A DNA stretch of 64,000 bases from Dictyostelium discoideum (GCA_000004695.1 CM000151.3:4160001-4224000); one strand, 5' to 3'. Shown: positions 4,827 through 44,989, counted from the stretch's first letter. Notes: generated by a model not told the origin, from the letters alone. Translations and numbers: made by a program.

Positions 4827-5996
4827 ATGTCGTCTCTGAGTAATTTAAAAGAACAATTAGAAAAAAAGAGGAAAGAAGCACAATTAAAGAATAGTAATAA
4901 CAACAACAACAACAACAATAACAATAGTAATAGTAATAATGGTTGTGATAAAAGTGAAGAACCAGCAACAAAAAAATATAAAACTAGAGGAGAAATTGAT
5001 AAAGAATTAAAACAAAAAAAAGAAGAAGAAAGAATAAAAAAAGAAAAAGAAAAAGAAAAAGAAAAAGAAAAAGAAAAAGAAAATTATAATAATAATAACA
5101 ATTCAAATGTAAATAGTAATAAAAATGAAAATAATATAAATATAGACAATGATAATGATAGTAATGATAAAATAAATAAATTAAAAGAAAATGAAGGATT
5201 TTTACCAGATATAGTTGTAATTCAAAGATTAAGAGAAAGAAGTCAACCAATTACTTATTTTGGAGAAACATCAATTGATAGGGCAATGAGATTAAAGAAA
5301 TTAGAAGAGAATGATCCGATAGAGTATACACAAGGTGATAATGAATTTGCAAATATTTTAAAACAAATTGAACAAAGGAAAATGAAAAAACATCAAGACA
5401 GTGCCGATAATGAGAAAGAAAAAGAAGAAAATGAAAATAATGATAAAAAAAAACAGCAACAGCAACAAGAGAATGAAGAAAGTGAGGAGCAGGAGTTGGA
5501 GAGATTGAGAATTGATTCTAGTAAATGCAAAGAATCTAAAATTTTATACTTTTTAAAGGGTTTGTTAAATGATTGGATTACAAATTTAGAGAATCGATCA
5601 GACGATGAAAAGAAATCGAGACAGGGTAAAATCGCCGAAGCGACCTATTACCAATGTAAATCGCATATTCAGCCACTATTTACATCGTTGCGAGAGAAAA
5701 CCCTATCCATTGATATATTGGAGCATATTAATGAGATTGTTGAGTTTTGTAAATCGCGTGAATACGTTCGTGCAAATGATGAGTATCTTCAAATGGCAAT
5801 TGGTAATGCACCTTGGCCAATGGGTGTCACTATGGTTGGTATTCATGAACGTTCAAGTAGAGAGAAAATCTTTTCGAATCAAGTAGCTCATGTACTAAAT
5901 GATGAAATGCAAAGAAAATACATTCAAGCTGTCAAACGTTTAATGACATTTTGTCAAACTCAATACCCAACTGCTCCAAGTAGAAGTATTGGTTAA
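4827..5996 (+). CDS. prp18: Pre-mRNA splicing factor Prp18 homolog, a single exon of 389 aa
   Basis: The C-terminal Prp18 domain reads 'ANDEYLQMAIGNAPWPMGVTMVGIHERSSREKIFSNQVAHVLNDEMQRKYIQAVKRLMTF'. The N-terminal SFM-like segment reads 'ITYFGETSIDRAMRLKKLE'. The ORF in the track begins at a TTG at 4800. The first in-frame ATG is at 4827 (MSSLSNLKEQ). The stop is TAA at 5994-5996. Confidence 0.85.
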   Translation: MSSLSNLKEQLEKKRKEAQLKNSNNNNNNNNNNSNSNNGCDKSEEPATKKYKTRGEIDKELKQKKEEERIKKEKEKEKEKEKEKENYNNNNNSNVNSNKNENNINIDNDNDSNDKINKLKENEGFLPDIVVIQRLRERSQPITYFGETSIDRAMRLKKLEENDPIEYTQGDNEFANILKQIEQRKMKKHQDSADNEKEKEENENNDKKKQQQQQENEESEEQELERLRIDSSKCKESKILYFLKGLLNDWITNLENRSDDEKKSRQGKIAEATYYQCKSHIQPLFTSLREKTLSIDILEHINEIVEFCKSREYVRANDEYLQMAIGNAPWPMGVTMVGIHERSSREKIFSNQVAHVLNDEMQRKYIQAVKRLMTFCQTQYPTAPSRSIG

Positions 5997-13217: not shown

Positions 13218-13986
13218 TTTATTATTAAAAAGTAAAAAATAGGAAAAAGGAAAATAATAAAAAAAAAAAGAAAAAAAAAAAAATAAAGAATCCAAACTTG
13301 TTTTTTTTTTTTTTTTTGATTTATTAAAAAAAATTGGTATTGGCAAAAATGTGAGAGACTAATTAATATTTGAAAATTTTAAAAAAAAAAAAAAAAAAAT
13401 AAAAATAAAATAAAAATAAAAATAAAAACCCATCAAGGCGTTTATTGGACTAAAATTATTTGAAAATTTTTTTTTTTTAATTTTTTTTTTTTTTTTAAAA
13501 AAATTTTCAAAACATTTTTTAGAAAAAAAAAAATTCACATTTTTTTATTTTTATTTCATTTTTATTTATTTATTTATTTATTTTTATTTATTTATTTATT
13601 TATTTTTATTTTTCTTAAAAAAAGAAGATTTTCAATTTAAGGTAAGAAGAAAAAAAAAAAAAAAAAAAAAGAAAACAAGCAAAAAAAAAAAAAAAAAAAA
13701 AACAAGCAAAAAAAAAGAAAATAAATTAAAGAAAATAAAAAAAAAAAAAAAAAAGAAAATAAAAAAAAGAAACAAACAAACAAACAAACAGAAATAAAAA
13801 ATAATAAAAATAATAAAAATAAATAAAAAAATTAATCACAACTGATTTTACCCCCTCAATTCAAAAAATTGTTGTTTGGTGTGATAATACTATATATAAT
13901 GAATTTTTTGTATGTGCAAAAATAGAAAAAAAAAGAAAAAAAAAAAAAAAAGAAAAAAAAAGAAAAAAAAGGGAAAAAAAAAAAAC

Positions 13987-14005
13987 ACACACACACACAC
14001 ACAAA
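13987..14005. repeat. (CA)n dinucleotide microsatellite inside a poly-A-rich intergenic stretch
   Basis: The run cacacacacacacacaa is directly visible. Confidence 0.8.
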
Positions 14006-14380
14006 CCCACTTTGTGCATTTTTGATTTAATTTTCAAACAACCCAATTTTTTCAATTGGCTTTTATTTGGGAAAGTGTGTTTTTTTCCTTTTTTTTTTTT
14101 ATTTTTGGGTGTGTTATGTAAATAAAAATAGAAATATATTATTTTGAAAAAAAAAAAAAAAAAAAATTATTTTTATCATCATTAATTATTTTTATATTAT
14201 TATTTAAAAAAAAAAAACAAATTAATTTTTTTTTTTATTATTTTTTTTTTTTTATATTCTTCAATATTTTTTTTTTTACCTCCTATTACTTTTTTTCATA
14301 ATTATTTGTAATATTCATATTAATAAATAAATTTAAATTTTTTATTTTTTTTAAATTTTTTCACAATAATAAAAAAAAAA

Positions 14381-16896: not shown

Positions 16897-17567
16897 GGTA
16901 TTTTATTTTTATGCACACATATACGTTTAGATGAAAGATCTTATATTATAATAACAGGGAACTTTTCATATATAATCATATTCTCAAATACACACACACT
17001 CTCTCTCTCTCATTCACATAAATCCTTTTTCTATACACTATTTGGGATATAGGAAAATAAAAAAAATATTTCTTTTTTTTTAAATTAAAAAGATTAATTA
17101 AGAAAAACTTCAGATTAGAATAAAACACACACACCCAAATAATTTTTCTCTCTCTCTTTTTTTTTTTTTTTTTTTTAATTTTTTTTTTTTTAATTTTTTT
17201 TTTTTAAAACACACAAATATAATTCACAATAATTACGGATTGTGGTGTATGTACAAGTAATATATACATCAATAGTCAAGTTTAAACTAATCAATCAAAA
17301 AACAACTCAAATAATAGGATTTACCTTAGATTATTCAATTCTTTAACCCTTTAAAATTTTATTCAATTGTAAATAAATATAAAAAAGACAACATAAAAAA
17401 AGAAAAACAAAAACAAAAACAAAAAAAATACAAAAAAAAAAGCAAAAAAAAAAAAAAGTTAATAAAAAAAAGCAAAAAAAAAAGTACAAAACTACCAAAC
17501 CAATATCAGTAACAGGTACAATAAATAACAAAATATATAATCTCAAACAGTTTCATACAAATATATA

Positions 17568-37310: not shown

Positions 37311-39299
<1,989 letters not shown>

Positions 39300-40276: not shown

Positions 40277-41101
40277 ATGATTCCAATAAAACATCAAAAT
40301 TTTATAAAAGAAATAATTGAATTATTAAAAAATGATTCAAGATTTGAATGTTTACTAGGGGCAGGATCAATGATTAATGATGAAATGGATGAACATTCTG
40401 ATTTAGACTTAATGTTAGTTGTTAAAAAAGAAGAATTTTCAGAGATTATGCTAAAAAGAAAAGAATTTGCAATTAAATTAAATGGTTATTTATCTGGATT
40501 TACAGGTGAACATGTTGGAGAACCAAGACTTTTAATTTGTTTATATGAAAGGGATAATGAAAATAATCAAAATGATTTATTATTACATGTTGATTTAAAA
40601 TTTATAACATTCGATTCAATGATAAAAGAATTAATCGAAATGCCAGTTGTATTATGGGAGAATGGTGATAATAATAATAATAATAATTCATCAATTAAAG
40701 ATTTAATAAAAAATTCAAATGTAAAATGGCCAAATAAAGAACCACAATGGTTTGAAGATAGAATTTGGATTTGGATTCATTATTGTTTAACAAAAATTCA
40801 AAGAGGTGAATTATTCGAAGCTATTGGTACGTTATCATGGATTAGGGATCAGGTTTTAGGTCCAATGTCAAATCGTAGAATTGGATTAAATCAAAGAGGT
40901 GTTAGAAAATTGGAATTAATTTCTGAACCAATTTCAACATTACTAAAAACAACAATTCCTTCAAATATTGATAAATCTTCATTATATGAATCATGTAATA
41001 ATTGTATTACAATTTATATAAATTTAAGAAATGATTATCCTCCAAATAATATTATTAAAAATATGCCATCAGTTTTAAATAAAATTTTAAATAATATTTA
41101 A
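40277..41101 (+). CDS. Nucleotidyltransferase-fold protein of 274 aa, resembling bacterial aminoglycoside/streptomycin 6-adenylyltransferase (ANT(6)/AadK). It is a single exon.
   Basis: The N-terminal NTase motif reads 'LLGAGSMINDEMDEHSDLDLMLVV' (the GS...D.D pattern). The second acidic strand reads 'LLLHVDLKFITF'. The C-terminal helical region 'WPNKEPQWFEDRIWIWIHYCLTKIQRGELFEAIGTLSWIRDQVLGPMSN' parallels AadK 'EFDDCCNEFWMV..YVVKGLARNEILFAIDHLNEIVRPNLLRMMAW', as recalled from memory. Confidence 0.6.
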   Translation: MIPIKHQNFIKEIIELLKNDSRFECLLGAGSMINDEMDEHSDLDLMLVVKKEEFSEIMLKRKEFAIKLNGYLSGFTGEHVGEPRLLICLYERDNENNQNDLLLHVDLKFITFDSMIKELIEMPVVLWENGDNNNNNNSSIKDLIKNSNVKWPNKEPQWFEDRIWIWIHYCLTKIQRGELFEAIGTLSWIRDQVLGPMSNRRIGLNQRGVRKLELISEPISTLLKTTIPSNIDKSSLYESCNNCITIYINLRNDYPPNNIIKNMPSVLNKILNNI

Positions 41102-41190: not shown

Positions 41191-41628
41191 TTAAATAAAA
41201 ATACCTCTAAAACATTTTTTACCACAACCAATTCTATAACAACATTTTTGATTCTCTCCATAAGCTTTACAATCACTATCTTTTGTACATTGGTCAGTTG
41301 GTGAACAATATATTTCAATTCTATTTTTCGGACAATTTAAAGTTGCAGTAGTTAATACAGATTGGACCAAATTTGCTTTATTACTTGGAACATTTGATGA
41401 TGAGGGTTTTACAAATCCAGAACTTGTTGTTGTTGTTGTTGTTGGAGTATTTGTTGGAGTATTTGTTGGAATATTATTTGATGTAGGAATATTCGTCGTA
41501 GTTGTTGTGGTTTGATTTGGATTTGTAAATGTTACAGATGTTACCCCACAAATACTCAAATTTATAAACAAACAATTAATTAAAAACAAAAAAAATAAAA
41601 TTTTAATAAAATTATTTAACATCATCAT
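41191..41628 (-). CDS. Secreted protein of 145 aa with a signal peptide, a Thr/Asn-rich O-glycosylation-like linker and a C-terminal WAP (whey acidic protein, four-disulfide core) domain
   Basis: The sequence is 'MMMLNNFIKILFFLFLINCLFINLSICG...' followed by 'TTTTTTNIPTSNNIPTNTPTNTPTTTTTT' and then 'CPKNRIEIYCSPTDQCTKDSDCKAYGENQKCCYRIGCGKKCF'. The WAP pattern C-P-x6-C-x5-C-x5-C-x6-CC-x3-C-x3-C has eight Cys. Confidence 0.6.
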   Translation of the reverse strand: MMMLNNFIKILFFLFLINCLFINLSICGVTSVTFTNPNQTTTTTTNIPTSNNIPTNTPTNTPTTTTTTSSGFVKPSSSNVPSNKANLVQSVLTTATLNCPKNRIEIYCSPTDQCTKDSDCKAYGENQKCCYRIGCGKKCFRGIFI

Positions 41629-42892
41629 TTTTGAATTTTTTTTTAATTATTTAATTATTTTTTAAAACTATATATTTTGAAAAAATAAAAATTAATTTTT
41701 TTCTTTACTTGTTGTTTTTTTTCTTCTTTAAAAAAAAAAAAAAAAAAAAAAATAAAAATTATTATTATTTATTATTATAATAATTATTATTATTTAATTT
41801 TTTAAGGGTTTGGTCAATTGATGGATAAATAAATAAATATAATAAAAAAACAAAAATGGGTTGTCTTTATATAGAAAAACTATAAAATGTTTTTAAATAA
41901 AATTATAAATATGAAAAATAAAATAAACAAACAAAATAATAATAATAATAATAAAAATAAAAATAATTAAGGATCAGATTGGTTTCATTTATATGTTGAG
42001 TGAGTTAGTGAGAGTGTGTGGGCGGGTTAGTGTGTGTATTTGTGTTTAGGGAGAGAACCAAAACCAAAATAATAAAAATAAATAAAAAAAAAAAAAAGAT
42101 ATTTATGTATGTATAAGTGTGTGGATATGTGTGAAAATCAATTGTACTAACCTATATATACTTGTGTTTAAAGATTTATTTGATTTTTCAATAAAAGATA
42201 TATTCTAGATTAGGATATTTTTTGTTTTTTTTATACTTTTTTGGTATTATTTTATATATCACCCCCAATTTTTATTATTAAAAAAAATAAAACAAAATAA
42301 AATAAAATAAAATAAAATATTTTAAAAGATATATTATAAAAAATATTATATTTCCACCCTAGGGAAAATCAATTAAAAAATGAAAAAATTCAAAAACTGT
42401 GATATCATTACAAAGGTCATTTTTTTATTTTTTAATTTTTTTATATACAAATTAATATTACCTTTAGTAATAAAAATATAATTTGGATCTTTTTTTTTTT
42501 TTTTTTTTTTTTTTGTTTTCATTAAAATAATAAAAATAAAAATTAAATAAAAAGTGGTTATAAAACAATACAATCAATCAGTTTTTGAAATAAAAAATTA
42601 ACACATACAATTAGTAATAGTATAAATACAAAAACCCCACTTAAAAAATTATATTTTATTTTTTTATTTATATATCTTTTAACCACTTTACACGTATACA
42701 CATAATATTTTTTTCATTTTAAATAAAAAAAAAAAAAGAGAAAAATAATAAATGAAAATATTTTCTTTTAATTTAAATAATAATAATTTAAATATTATTT
42801 AAATTTATATTTATTTATTTTTTATATTTATTTATTTTTTATTTATATTTTTTTTTTTTATTTTTTATTTTTTATTTTTTTATTTTATTTTT

Positions 42893-43337
42893 TTATTTAA
42901 ATTGTTCAATATTTAATTTAAATTCAGAAAATAAATCATTTAAAGATAATTTAACTTGTTTATTATCTTCAGGTAAATCACGTTTTCTAACATTTAAAAT
43001 ATTTGTATCAATTTCTTCTTGACCAACTACAATGATATAATTATATTGAGAGACTGTAGCTTCACGAATTTTCTTTGATAATAATTTTGAATCATTTAAA
43101 TCTACATCAACATCATAACCAGCTAAATTAATTTTAGATTGAATTTCTTGAGCAAATTGATTAAATTTATTTGAAACTGGAATTACAATACATTGACGTG
43201 GTGATAACCAAAATGGCCATTTACCAGCAGTATGTTCCATTAAAATTGCCATCATTCTTTCAACTGAACCAAATAAAGCACGATGAATCATAACTGGACG
43301 ATTTAATGAATTATTGTTATTATTATCATTTATTTCT

Positions 43338-43369
<32 letters not shown>

Positions 43370-44989
43370 TAATCCACCAGAATATTCTAAATTAAAACGA
43401 ATTGGTAATTGAAAATCTAATTGAATTGTTGCACATTGATGATTTTTACCATTTGCATCTTTAAGATGAATATCAATTTTTGGACCATAGAAAGCACCAT
43501 CACCATGATTAATTGTCCATTTATCACCACAAAATTCAGTTAAAACTTGAGAGAGTGAAGTTTCAGCTTTTTCCCAAACTGATAATTCACCAAGATAAGA
43601 ATCTGGACGAGTTGATAATTCTAAATGAAAAGTGAAATTAAAGATTGTATAAACATATTTCATAAAGTCTAAACATTGTTTAATCTCTTCACGAATCATA
43701 TCTGGTGTACAAAAGATATGAGCATCATCTTGTTGAAAACGTCTTACCCTAGTGAGACCAGATAGAGAGCCATGGGTTTCATTACGATGTAAAACTCCGA
43801 AATCAGCAATACGCATAGGCAACTCTTTATAACTACGTGCTCTATGAGCATACATTAAACAATGGCCCGGACAATTCATTGGTTTTAAAGAGTATTGAGT
43901 ATGATCACATTCAAATGAAAACATATTATCCTTGTAATTATCCCAATGACCTGAAGTTTCCCAAAGTTTTTGATTATAAATATTTGGTGATATAACTTCT
44001 TGATAACCACGTTTACGATATTCCAAACGTAGGAATTGTAAAAGTTTATTATAAATCTTTGTACCATGTGGTAAAAAGAAACAACTACCAGGACTAAATG
44101 GATGAAAAAAGAAAAGTTCTTGATCTTTACCAATCACTCTATGATCACGTAATGCTGCAATCTTTTGAATCTCTACCCAATTATTCATTTGATCTTTACT
44201 TGGGAATGAAATACCAACAATACGTTGAAGTTCTGAATATTCTTTATTTGGTCCAACAACTGAACTATTTTTAATTAAATCTAATGATACAATTGAATTA
44301 CTTGAATCAATTGTTAAAAAATTATTTTTAAATTTAAATTCACCAAATTTTATAAAACTCTCCTCTTGATCTTGATCTTGGTCTTGTTGATCATTTTTTA
44401 AAATTTCAAATTTATCATTTCTTTTTACAATATATTCCATAATTTTTTTAATTTTATTTATATCATTATCTTTAATAGTTTGATTTTTATCTTTAAAAAA
44501 TATATCAATATAAAATGTACCTTGATTAATGTTATCGGCAGTTTGTGGATTTACTAAATGACCAAAATTAATTAATTCAATTTCTTTATTTTCATTTTTA
44601 AAATATTCCATTGTTGCACGTGCCAATACTAATGAACTTGAATTCCAAAAACAAATTCTTGCATCTGAATGTTCTTCAAAATTTAAAAATTCAATATTAT
44701 AATCTTTACCACTCATTTCAATGATTTCTTTCATTGAAATTAATTTATTACCATTTAATCTTGATAAAATCGATTGTTTACCAATTGTTTTATTAATTTT
44801 ATTAGCAATTGTTAATGGTGTTTGTTTATCTTCAAATTTAAATATTCTACCATCATTTAATTTAATATTACCACCACCACCACTATTATTAATGTTTGTT
44901 GTTGAAAAATATTTATTTATTAAATTAATTTTATTATTATTAAAATTATTAATTTTTTGAATTGATTTTGTTAATTTTAAAAATGACAT
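42893..44989 (-). CDS. thrS: Threonyl-tRNA synthetase of 698 aa, a single exon, with a predicted N-terminal mitochondrial presequence
   Basis: Class II aaRS motifs and ThrRS-specific blocks are present: 'LWETSGHWDNYKDNMF', 'LKPMNCPGHCLMY...SYKELPMRIADFGVLHRNE', 'LSGLTRVRRFQQDDAHIFC', 'QLDFQLPIRFNLEY' and 'RPVMIHRALFGSVERMMAILMEH'. The N-terminus 'MSFLKLTKSIQKINNFNNNKINLINKYFSTT' is basic and hydroxylated and lacks acidic residues. Confidence 0.92.

Follow-up and report, generated by a model that had tools for sequence, protein, structure and literature searches.

DDB_G0274699 of Dictyostelium discoideum, a constrained single-exon gene for a probable secreted WAP-domain protein

The window examined here, a 64-kb stretch of D. 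discoideum AX4 chromosomal DNA with a GC content of 21%, contains a genuine, selectively constrained, single-exon gene, DDB_G0274699, whose product is very probably a real secreted WAP-domain protein. We hold with high confidence that its C-terminal eight-cysteine module is a WAP-type domain that is divergent but genuine. As an explanation of the whole, we favor with moderate confidence a secreted WAP protein in which an O-glycosylated stalk would carry a cationic head directed at bacteria. The WAP annotation of DDB_G0274699 is correct, but it is already recorded in databases: the UniRef name of the protein (Q555M1) is "WAP domain-containing protein," and the D. discoideum, D. purpureum, and D. 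firmibasis proteins are all labeled as WAP domain-containing in UniProt. A literature search found the locus tag in no main text and found no paper describing a Dictyostelium WAP, and the tag was likewise absent from the supplementary text of a bacterial-exposure RNA-seq study, a 2026 life-cycle proteome, and a cell-type marker study.

A selectively constrained, single-exon gene

An uninterrupted 145-codon ATG-to-stop open reading frame (ORF) in the ORF listing of the window occupies 41191..41628 on the minus strand, filling exactly the interval to which the sequence-only reading had assigned it. The ORF list, an exact-sequence look-up, and orthologues with matching N and C termini in four other Dictyostelium taxa all mark it as a complete single-exon coding sequence of 145 amino acids plus a stop codon. 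By exact-sequence look-up, the protein is identical to D. discoideum AX4 XP_644045.1/EAL70242.1, which is DDB_G0274699 and UniProt Q555M1. An older 128-amino-acid model (Q8MP21), which begins with an upstream exon reading MTFVMIS, was rejected because the signal peptide of the single-exon model, beginning MMML, is kept in all full-length orthologues.

Full-length orthologues were found in another D. discoideum strain, D. cf. discoideum, D. dimigraforme, and D. firmibasis (71 to 96% identity), and the WAP module is nearly invariant among them. Compared with D. firmibasis, the WAP domain has a dS of 0.72 and a dN of 0.046, giving a dN/dS of 0.06, and the C-terminal 76 amino acids have a dN/dS of 0.15; these substitution ratios point to purifying selection on the gene. 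When 1.84 billion representative proteins were searched exhaustively with phmmer, the one further relative to emerge was D. purpureum XP_003289140, and neither a paralogue nor a relative outside the genus was detected at an E value of ≤0.001. Dictyostelium seems, on this evidence, to possess just one WAP gene, which is strongly constrained and has no detected paralogue. Profile searches of a 5.8-billion-protein index, run with a strict word pre-filter for the 51-amino-acid query, gave one and seven candidates, and neither set added a relative from Dictyostelium or from elsewhere outside the metazoans. Narrow pattern scans, which could miss distant WAPs, yielded no confirmed relative in prokaryotic genomes or metagenome contigs. 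A 4676-amino-acid repeat protein (P0011) that the exhaustive phmmer search also returned was discarded as spurious, its 29 matches having come through a "LSTATLACAENQ...CSDD" repeat and not through a WAP domain.

In the annotated D. purpureum model, 92 amino acids long, a predicted intron leads into a C-terminal VGVII. The underlying genomic DNA holds an uninterrupted 100-codon ORF (L001 6001..6303) that carries all eight cysteines, and the deposited model is therefore probably mis-spliced. In D. firmibasis, in D. purpureum, and in the window, the WAP gene lies just downstream of a threonyl-tRNA synthetase (ThrRS) gene and in the same orientation. As the split between D. discoideum and D. purpureum is estimated at about 400 million years ago (PMC3188802), a syntenic D. 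purpureum orthologue makes the gene at least that old in group-4 dictyostelids. Recent horizontal transfer is unsupported, because the coding GC content (about 0.29 to 0.33) is like that of neighboring genes and D. purpureum has the gene at the syntenic position. The only parts kept out to D. purpureum are the WAP module and a short TxFxNPN motif, which argues that the WAP module is the functional unit and the stalk a recent, expendable spacer.

The eight-cysteine module

The C-terminal module, which holds the putative WAP domain (41209..41337, minus strand), reads C-PKNRIEIY-C-SPTDQ-C-TKDSD-C-KAYGENQK-CC-YRIG-C-GKK-C-FRGIFI, with C99, C108, C114, C120, C129, C130, C135, and C139 placed within 41 residues and including an adjacent CC pair (C5C6). 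None of the eight cysteines varies in any full-length orthologue, the uninterrupted D. purpureum ORF included, and in a regular-expression scan of all six frames the pattern C-x8-C-x5-C-x5-C-x8-CC-x4-C-x3-C occurs once in the 64-kb window.

Recognition of the module as a WAP domain draws on Pfam, on profile-profile comparison, on elafin as its best match among PDB sequences, and on the low dN/dS already described. The Pfam model PF00095, which the sequence-only reading had proposed as a check, has a curated gathering threshold of 20.8 bits; the whole protein scores 26.3 bits (E = 8.8e-6, residues 98 to 140), the isolated domain 29.8 bits (E = 7.2e-7), and the uninterrupted D. purpureum ORF 25.2 bits, also above the threshold. 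Eight shuffled versions (five with the cysteines fixed and three full shuffles) gave zero WAP matches even at an E value of ≤10. Since cysteine-fixed shuffles score nothing, the WAP score depends on the non-cysteine signature as well as on spacing; the positions concerned are CP after C1, D-S-D between C3 and C4, K before CC, and G after C7. No other small disulfide-rich Pfam family was matched, even at an E value of ≤10, so that the better fit to another small disulfide fold, named beforehand as the outcome that would count against a WAP, was not seen.

Comparison of a Dictyostelium-only alignment with one of elafin, SLPI domain 2, and snake waprins by hhalign gave a probability of 94.3% (E 9.5e-8) over 29 columns covering C3 to C8. 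With a single sequence as the phmmer query, elafin was the best PDB match at 14.3 bits (E 0.28); as a scale for divergence within the family, elafin and nawaprin, both undisputed WAPs, match each other at just 20 bits. A model of the domain (pLDDT 65.6) has the expected beta-hairpin and was built from an alignment that included waprins, so it is not independent of WAPs. Foldseek placed elafin and nawaprin as its top two matches, in structural searches that were not significant.

The spacing of the cysteines fits only in part. The classical core signature of Ranganathan (1999) is reportedly C3-x5-C4-x5-C5C6-x3..5-C7-x3..4-C8, with which C3-x5-C4, C6-x4-C7, and C7-x3-C8 agree. The strict pattern fails at C4-C5, where 8 residues are present compared to 5 in elafin, SLPI, and nawaprin; the excess is a 3-residue insertion in the YGE region that is found in every Dictyostelium orthologue. 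The C6-C7 interval is 4 residues, compared to 3 in elafin and SLPI. Because the strict spacing fails and the profile nonetheless matches, we regard the module as a divergent rather than a typical member. The KxGxCP motif is reduced to CP at C1 (ATLNCP, and SQLKCP in D. purpureum), and the CxxP motif at C8 is absent, C8 being followed by FRG. Both motifs are typical of "domain II"-type WAPs and are missing from "domain I"-type WAPs (PMC3742519), and they therefore do not define the whole family.

These divergent features give weight to a different view, that the eight-cysteine module arose convergently, is not homologous to WAP domains, and possibly has a disulfide topology other than the C1-C6, C2-C7, C3-C5, and C4-C8 pairing of WAPs. 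The exhaustive phmmer search with the C-terminal 76 amino acids found no relative outside Dictyostelium at an E value of ≤0.001 among the 1.84 billion representatives, a profile of the Dictyostelium WAP domains alone matched no PDB chain at an E value of ≤10, the C4-C5 interval is unlike that of elafin, SLPI, and nawaprin, and the structural searches gave no significant match. Against convergence, the Pfam score lies over the curated cutoff in two species and depends on non-cysteine residues; the CP after C1, the D between C3 and C4, the K before CC, and the G after C7 are common to WAPs; the hhalign probability is 94%; and WAPs are highly divergent among themselves, as the 20 bits between elafin and nawaprin illustrate. 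We consider convergence improbable and treat the module as a WAP-type domain in what follows.

Architecture and candidate activities

The arrangement of signal peptide, threonine-rich mucin-like stalk, and WAP domain described in the sequence-only reading agrees with the Pfam results, the shuffle controls, the orthologues, and the profile-profile comparison. Residues 1 to 27 (MMMLNNFIKILFFLFLINCLFINLSIC; 41548..41628, minus strand) are a predicted cleavable signal peptide on the basis of hydropathy, a helix model, and conservation of the junction. One basic residue is followed by a 15-residue hydrophobic core, residues 6 to 20 are strongly hydrophobic (Kyte-Doolittle 11-residue means of 2.0 to 2.9), and residues 2 to 25 were modeled by AF2 as a helix with a pLDDT of about 83. 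The AF2 model of the full-length protein, made with six close orthologues, had a pLDDT of 44.6 and was unusable beyond the signal peptide. The S25-x-C27|G28 junction is conserved across orthologues and would fit the -3/-1 rule for signal peptidase, and sequence conservation begins sharply at C27-G28; predicted cleavage after Cys27 would leave exactly eight cysteines in the mature protein. The mature N terminus would begin with the motif GVTSVTFTNPN (residues 28 to 38; 41515..41547, minus strand), defined by invariant columns of the orthologue alignment, which takes the form GVTS(V/I)TFTNPN across orthologues and has the counterpart TTVFENPNPN in D. purpureum.

Residues 39 to 70 (41419..41514, minus strand) form, by composition, a Thr/Asn/Pro-rich, mucin-like stalk and a candidate O-glycosylation region, made of Thr runs and NIPT/NTPT units. 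Across residues 28 to 97, the composition is 33% Thr, 13% Ser, 14% Asn, and 10% Pro, with zero acidic residues. The stalk is encoded by tandem repeats, namely, (TTG)7 at 41424-41444 and 3.1 copies of a 12-bp unit at 41439-41475. Between D. discoideum strains the stalk differs by a 3-residue indel, between species it varies in length and sequence, and in D. purpureum it is missing, so that just 10 or so residues stand between the NPNPNQ motif and the WAP module. From this repeat-encoded, length-variable, and phylogenetically restricted character, we conclude that the stalk is a lineage-specific insertion generated by repeat slippage, in line with the way amino acid repeats generally turn over between the D. 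discoideum and D. purpureum genomes (PMC3188802). The mucin-like linker proposed earlier thus holds for its Thr/Asn/Pro-rich composition, but the linker is not a conserved part of the protein. A match of the stalk to the Pfam family New_glue (20.8 bits, under the cutoff of 31) is compositional. O-glycosylation of the stalk is plausible by analogy with Thr/Pro-rich secreted proteins of Dictyostelium.

Between the stalk and the eight-cysteine module lies a conserved spacer (residues 71 to 97, GFVKPSSSNVPSNKANLVQSVLTTATL; 41338..41418, minus strand) with invariant or near-invariant columns, conserved as GFVKPSSSNVPSNKANLVQSVL in the D. discoideum clade only and with no counterpart in D. purpureum in the orthologue alignment. 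The protein ends in a basic/hydrophobic tail, RGIFI (41194..41208, minus strand), which is invariant in alignments of the D. discoideum clade and is apparently too short for a glycosylphosphatidylinositol (GPI) or transmembrane signal.

In the mechanism we propose, the leader would be cleaved after Cys27 as the protein enters the secretory pathway, and the stalk would be O-glycosylated in the Golgi, as are Thr/Pro-rich regions of Dictyostelium surface and spore-coat proteins. The glycosylated stalk could then hold a compact, disulfide-locked WAP head clear of N-terminal contacts, and the head would bind its target outside the cell or in the endo-lysosomal lumen. The activity would be that of a cationic, bacteria-directed WAP of the SWAM/omwaprin/crustin type, either membrane binding or antimicrobial.

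A review of WAP proteins assigns to inhibitors a Met adjacent to the scissile bond in the "primary contact region" around Cys2, whereas in antimicrobial WAPs cationic and hydrophobic residues take the place of the inhibitor loop around Cys2 (PMC9680087). Before Cys2, the Dictyostelium domain has alternating basic and hydrophobic residues (KNRIEIYC, and KMKVDFC in D. purpureum). The residues around Cys2 are IEIY-C-SPTDQ, or VDF-C-YGGVSDQ in D. purpureum, with no Met beside Cys2 and no elafin-like AMLNPPN loop, and the C2-C3 loop has 5 residues (7 in D. purpureum) compared to 8 in elafin and SLPI. The domain has a net charge of +3.7 and a pI of 8.7 (+2.8 and 8.5 in D. purpureum). It therefore lacks the primary-contact feature of elafin and SLPI and shows the residues and charge of antimicrobial WAPs, a description that is permissive and not specific. 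The missing elafin-like loop, together with the cationic and hydrophobic Cys2 region, tilts the odds toward a bacteria-directed role, and antimicrobial-type activity is the most likely one, ahead of canonical elafin-type protease inhibition. Elafin and SLPI are also basic, however, so cationic charge does not discriminate, and since inhibitor reactive loops are often hypervariable, the missing elafin-like loop would be compatible with inhibition of another protease. On these sequence features, an antimicrobial or bacteria-binding role is a reasonable but tentative proposal, and it would fit an organism that lives by killing bacteria.

Were the protein instead a canonical tight-binding serine-protease inhibitor of the elafin/SLPI (chelonianin) type, its Cys2 loop would dock in the protease active site and shield the amoeba or its matrix from proteases of bacteria or fungi or from those that the amoeba itself secretes, with the stalk acting like the cementoin anchor of trappin-2. 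Elafin is the top sequence match among solved structures, the succession of leader, repeat region, and single C-terminal WAP parallels trappin-2, and the C1-C3 segment is the part of the domain that varies most between D. discoideum and D. purpureum, as for a reactive loop. We nevertheless think such an inhibitor unlikely, given that neither Met nor Leu stands beside Cys2, that nothing resembling AMLNPPN is present, that the C2-C3 loop is short compared to that of elafin and SLPI, and that Cys2 of D. discoideum is followed by Ser-Pro, in which a Pro at the P1' register would be unfavorable. A developmentally regulated component of the extracellular matrix (slime sheath, stalk tube, or spore coat) would use the same O-glycosylated Thr-rich region and Cys-rich head for structure or cross-linking and not for defense, and a signal peptide followed by a Thr-rich repeat and a Cys-rich module is typical of Dictyostelium coat and matrix proteins. 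An upstream CA/GT-rich island that resembles the G-box/CA-rich elements of post-aggregative promoters, with counterparts in D. firmibasis and D. purpureum, also speaks for a matrix role. This island (41977..42063), G/T-rich as read in the window and C/A-rich on the coding strand, lies about 350 to 430 bp upstream of the ATG and has a GC content of 0.32 and a GC skew of +0.7 to +0.8, compared to a GC content of 0.06 to 0.22 in neighboring 100-bp intergenic segments; at a comparable upstream distance, D. firmibasis has a (TG)n tract and D. purpureum a GT-rich island. It is a possible G-box/CA-rich promoter element whose link to the WAP gene is tentative, and similar islands in several other intergenic regions of the window make it neither specific nor diagnostic. 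Rfam and tRNA scans found nothing in the flanking intergenic DNA. The complete loss of the stalk in D. purpureum argues against a matrix role, as does, weakly, the absence of the protein from the supplementary tables of the 2026 life-cycle proteome and of the cell-type marker study, and a single 48-residue head with no free cysteine would make a poor cross-linker. By analogy with known coat proteins, then, a matrix function has some appeal, and we judge it quite unlikely. The rest of the probability falls to other or unassigned functions.

A further proposal of the sequence-only reading was that the gene forms a small defense or detoxification cluster with an adjacent ANT(6)-like gene. The two genes are close, lying tail to tail with their stop codons 89 bp apart, but little else favors a functional unit. 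The neighboring ORF (40277..41101, plus strand) is nucleotidyltransferase-like by sub-threshold Pol-beta-type matches: Pfam at an E value of ≤10 gave Polbeta at 21.2 bits compared to a cutoff of 26.9, with MTPAP-like_central and NTP_transf_2 also below threshold; NCBIfam gave MntA only (E 0.058); and PDB gave lincosamide nucleotidyltransferase 3jyy only (E 0.15). No family annotated as ANT(6) or streptomycin adenylyltransferase was reported by any of the three, and the ANT(6)-like label could not be sustained. When the syntenic loci of D. firmibasis and D. purpureum, where ThrRS-WAP is kept, were searched by tblastn, no copy of this ORF was found, and the same searches recovered ThrRS in both loci and an MFS transporter in D. 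firmibasis. The two genes are therefore neighbors in D. discoideum only, and functional linkage is unsupported. Convergent orientation also excludes a shared promoter, and to our knowledge gene adjacency in Dictyostelium is generally not functional. A defense or detoxification cluster is, in our estimation, extremely improbable.

In animals, WAP proteins such as elafin, SLPI, WFDC2/HE4, crustins, and waprins are important in mucosal defense, reproduction, and venom. Whether the fold was originally antiprotease or antimicrobial is unsettled, and redundant copies are numerous in the genomes of animals. In 2007, WAP still figured as animal specific in a domain survey (PMC2394772), and a 2022 review states that the superfamily reaches bacteria and is not confined to metazoans (PMC9680087). 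We raise, as a doubtful but consequential possibility, that the Dictyostelium WAP protein is an innate-defense effector, antibacterial or antiprotease, of a professional phagocyte, inherited vertically or acquired anciently; inheritance or acquisition would then date to the group-4 ancestor at least 400 million years ago. If this is true, WAP-based host defense operates outside animals, and a haploid amoeba that is genetically tractable and has just one WAP gene could be used to dissect ancestral WAP activity. Dictyostelium is suited to WAP genetics as a bacterial feeder with easy knockouts, and an antibacterial or antiprotease effector would offer both a clean genetic system and a data point for premetazoan or horizontally acquired immune modules. 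In practical terms, the analysis also yields a corrected gene model for D. purpureum and does away with a supposed defense cluster.

Comparison with known WAP and coat proteins

Among the proteins of Dictyostelium itself, the prespore antigen PsA and the spore coat protein SP96 combine a signal peptide with Thr/Pro-rich repeats, are substrates of Golgi O-glycosylation, and have repeats encoded by slippage-prone trinucleotide tracts. Proteins of this type carry other Cys-rich modules or GPI anchors and no WAP domain, and their likeness to the protein described here is one of layout.

Elafin/trappin-2 and SLPI, mammalian inhibitors of the chelonianin family, are, like the Dictyostelium protein, basic proteins with a single or double WAP four-disulfide core, secretion being predicted in the case of Dictyostelium. 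Shared with the elafin and SLPI domains are CP after C1, C3-x2-D-x2-C4, K-CC, C7-G, and C7-x3-C8. The Dictyostelium domain differs in having neither the AMLNPPN/LMLNPPN reactive loop nor the scissile-bond Met, and in its C4-C5 (8 versus 5 residues) and C6-C7 (4 versus 3) intervals; by the reactive-loop criterion, its sequence is outside the elafin/SLPI inhibitor subset. In trappin-2, too, a leader and a repeat region precede a lone C-terminal WAP, but its repeats are transglutaminase substrates (cementoin), whereas those of the Dictyostelium protein make up a Thr-rich, mucin-like stretch. Crustins share with trappin-2 and the Dictyostelium protein the layout of leader, low-complexity region, and C-terminal WAP. 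Their N-terminal regions are Cys-rich, Gly-rich, or hydrophobic where that of Dictyostelium is Thr-rich, they are restricted to Pancrustacea, and no specific sequence relationship of the Dictyostelium domain to them was detected.

Snake waprins (nawaprin and omwaprin) and mouse SWAM1/2 are small, secreted, single-WAP antibacterial proteins that, like the Dictyostelium protein, have no elafin-type loop. They also share with the Dictyostelium domain the cationic and hydrophobic residues around Cys2 that mark antimicrobial WAPs (PMC9680087). Waprins were the strongest named matches to a mixed WAP profile, and nawaprin stood second in the Foldseek list. The identity of waprins to the Dictyostelium domain is only about 29 to 35%, and, unlike the Dictyostelium protein, they retain KxGxCP, have the x5 spacing at C4-C5, and lack a stalk. 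Taken across these comparisons, the Dictyostelium protein would act most like the single-WAP secreted effectors, namely, waprins, SWAM proteins, and crustins.

Gene models and stalk length

The deposited D. purpureum model of the WAP gene, XP_003289140.1 (L001 6001..6656, on GL871101.1), is annotated as a protein of 92 aa with 'VGVII' as its last residues, and the end of the WAP domain is spliced out of it. Genomic DNA at the same locus carries a 100-codon ORF without interruption (L001 6001..6303), which encodes 8/8 cysteines, has the C-terminus GCGMKCVHGINV and reaches 25.2 bits against the Pfam WAP model. The deposited gene model probably contains a splicing error.

Within D. discoideum, the Thr-rich stalk (window 41419..41514) is polymorphic in length, and its repeat tract is therefore still evolving by slippage. 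Compared with the orthologue from another strain (P0002, KAM9965554.1), the stalk encoded in the window has TPTNTPTTTTTT against TPA---TTTTTT, and the two also differ by N52Y. The search of representative proteins also returned P0011, a giant protein (4676 aa) built of near-identical repeats of ~110 to 140 residues ('...NFNALSTATLACAENQIAKWNGSAWACSDDVDTDTFAAWDK...'). The query matched it at 29 places over a short segment of low information in the repeats; P0011 is not a WAP protein.

Neighboring genes

The order and orientation of the threonyl-tRNA synthetase (ThrRS) gene (window 42893..44989, minus strand) and the WAP gene are kept in all three species, D. discoideum, D. firmibasis, and D. 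purpureum, with ThrRS identities of 84% to D. firmibasis and 63% to D. purpureum. On the other side, an MFS-type transporter (37908..39299, plus strand) is 77% identical to the D. firmibasis neighbor annotated PF07690. Closest to the WAP gene lies DDB_G0274701 (40277..41101, plus strand; 274 aa), with a nucleotidyltransferase-like N-terminus (G-S...D-x-D; GAGSMINDEMDEHSDLDL) and family matches that are all sub-threshold. D. discoideum strains carry this gene; D. firmibasis and D. purpureum lack it at the syntenic locus. It may represent a lineage-specific gain or be a gene that has relocated.

Conserved elements between ThrRS and WAP

Alignment of the intergenic region (window 41629..42892, minus strand) with D. 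firmibasis (L002 4923..6000) resolved discrete conserved blocks, which are probably promoter elements; Rfam and tRNA scans of the region gave no match. One block, CTTGTAATG(A/G)TATC(A/T)CAGTTTTTGAAT (about 42385-42413), overlaps the upstream 'exon' MTFVMIS of the older model Q8MP21, an exon we rejected as spurious. The others are GGGTGATATATA..AATAATACCAA, AATGAAACCAATCTGATCC (about 41971-41989; 19/19 identical), AACAACAAGTAA(A/G)GA, and CTATATAAAGA(C/T)AACCCATT, the last a likely TATA region.

The ATG of the WAP gene is preceded, at about 350-430 bp, by a G/T-rich island (41977..42063; GC 0.32) that is C/A-rich on the WAP coding strand and is surrounded by very AT-rich intergenic DNA. At comparable distances there is a (TG)n tract in D. 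firmibasis (L002 about 5618..5665, ~340-380 bp upstream) and a GT-rich island in D. purpureum (L001 about 5478..5552, ~450-520 bp upstream). The window contains similar islands in several further intergenic regions (e.g., at 2893-2965, at 13972-14023, and at 16970-17040). The island upstream of WAP resembles the G-box/CA-rich elements in promoters of developmental genes in Dictyostelium.
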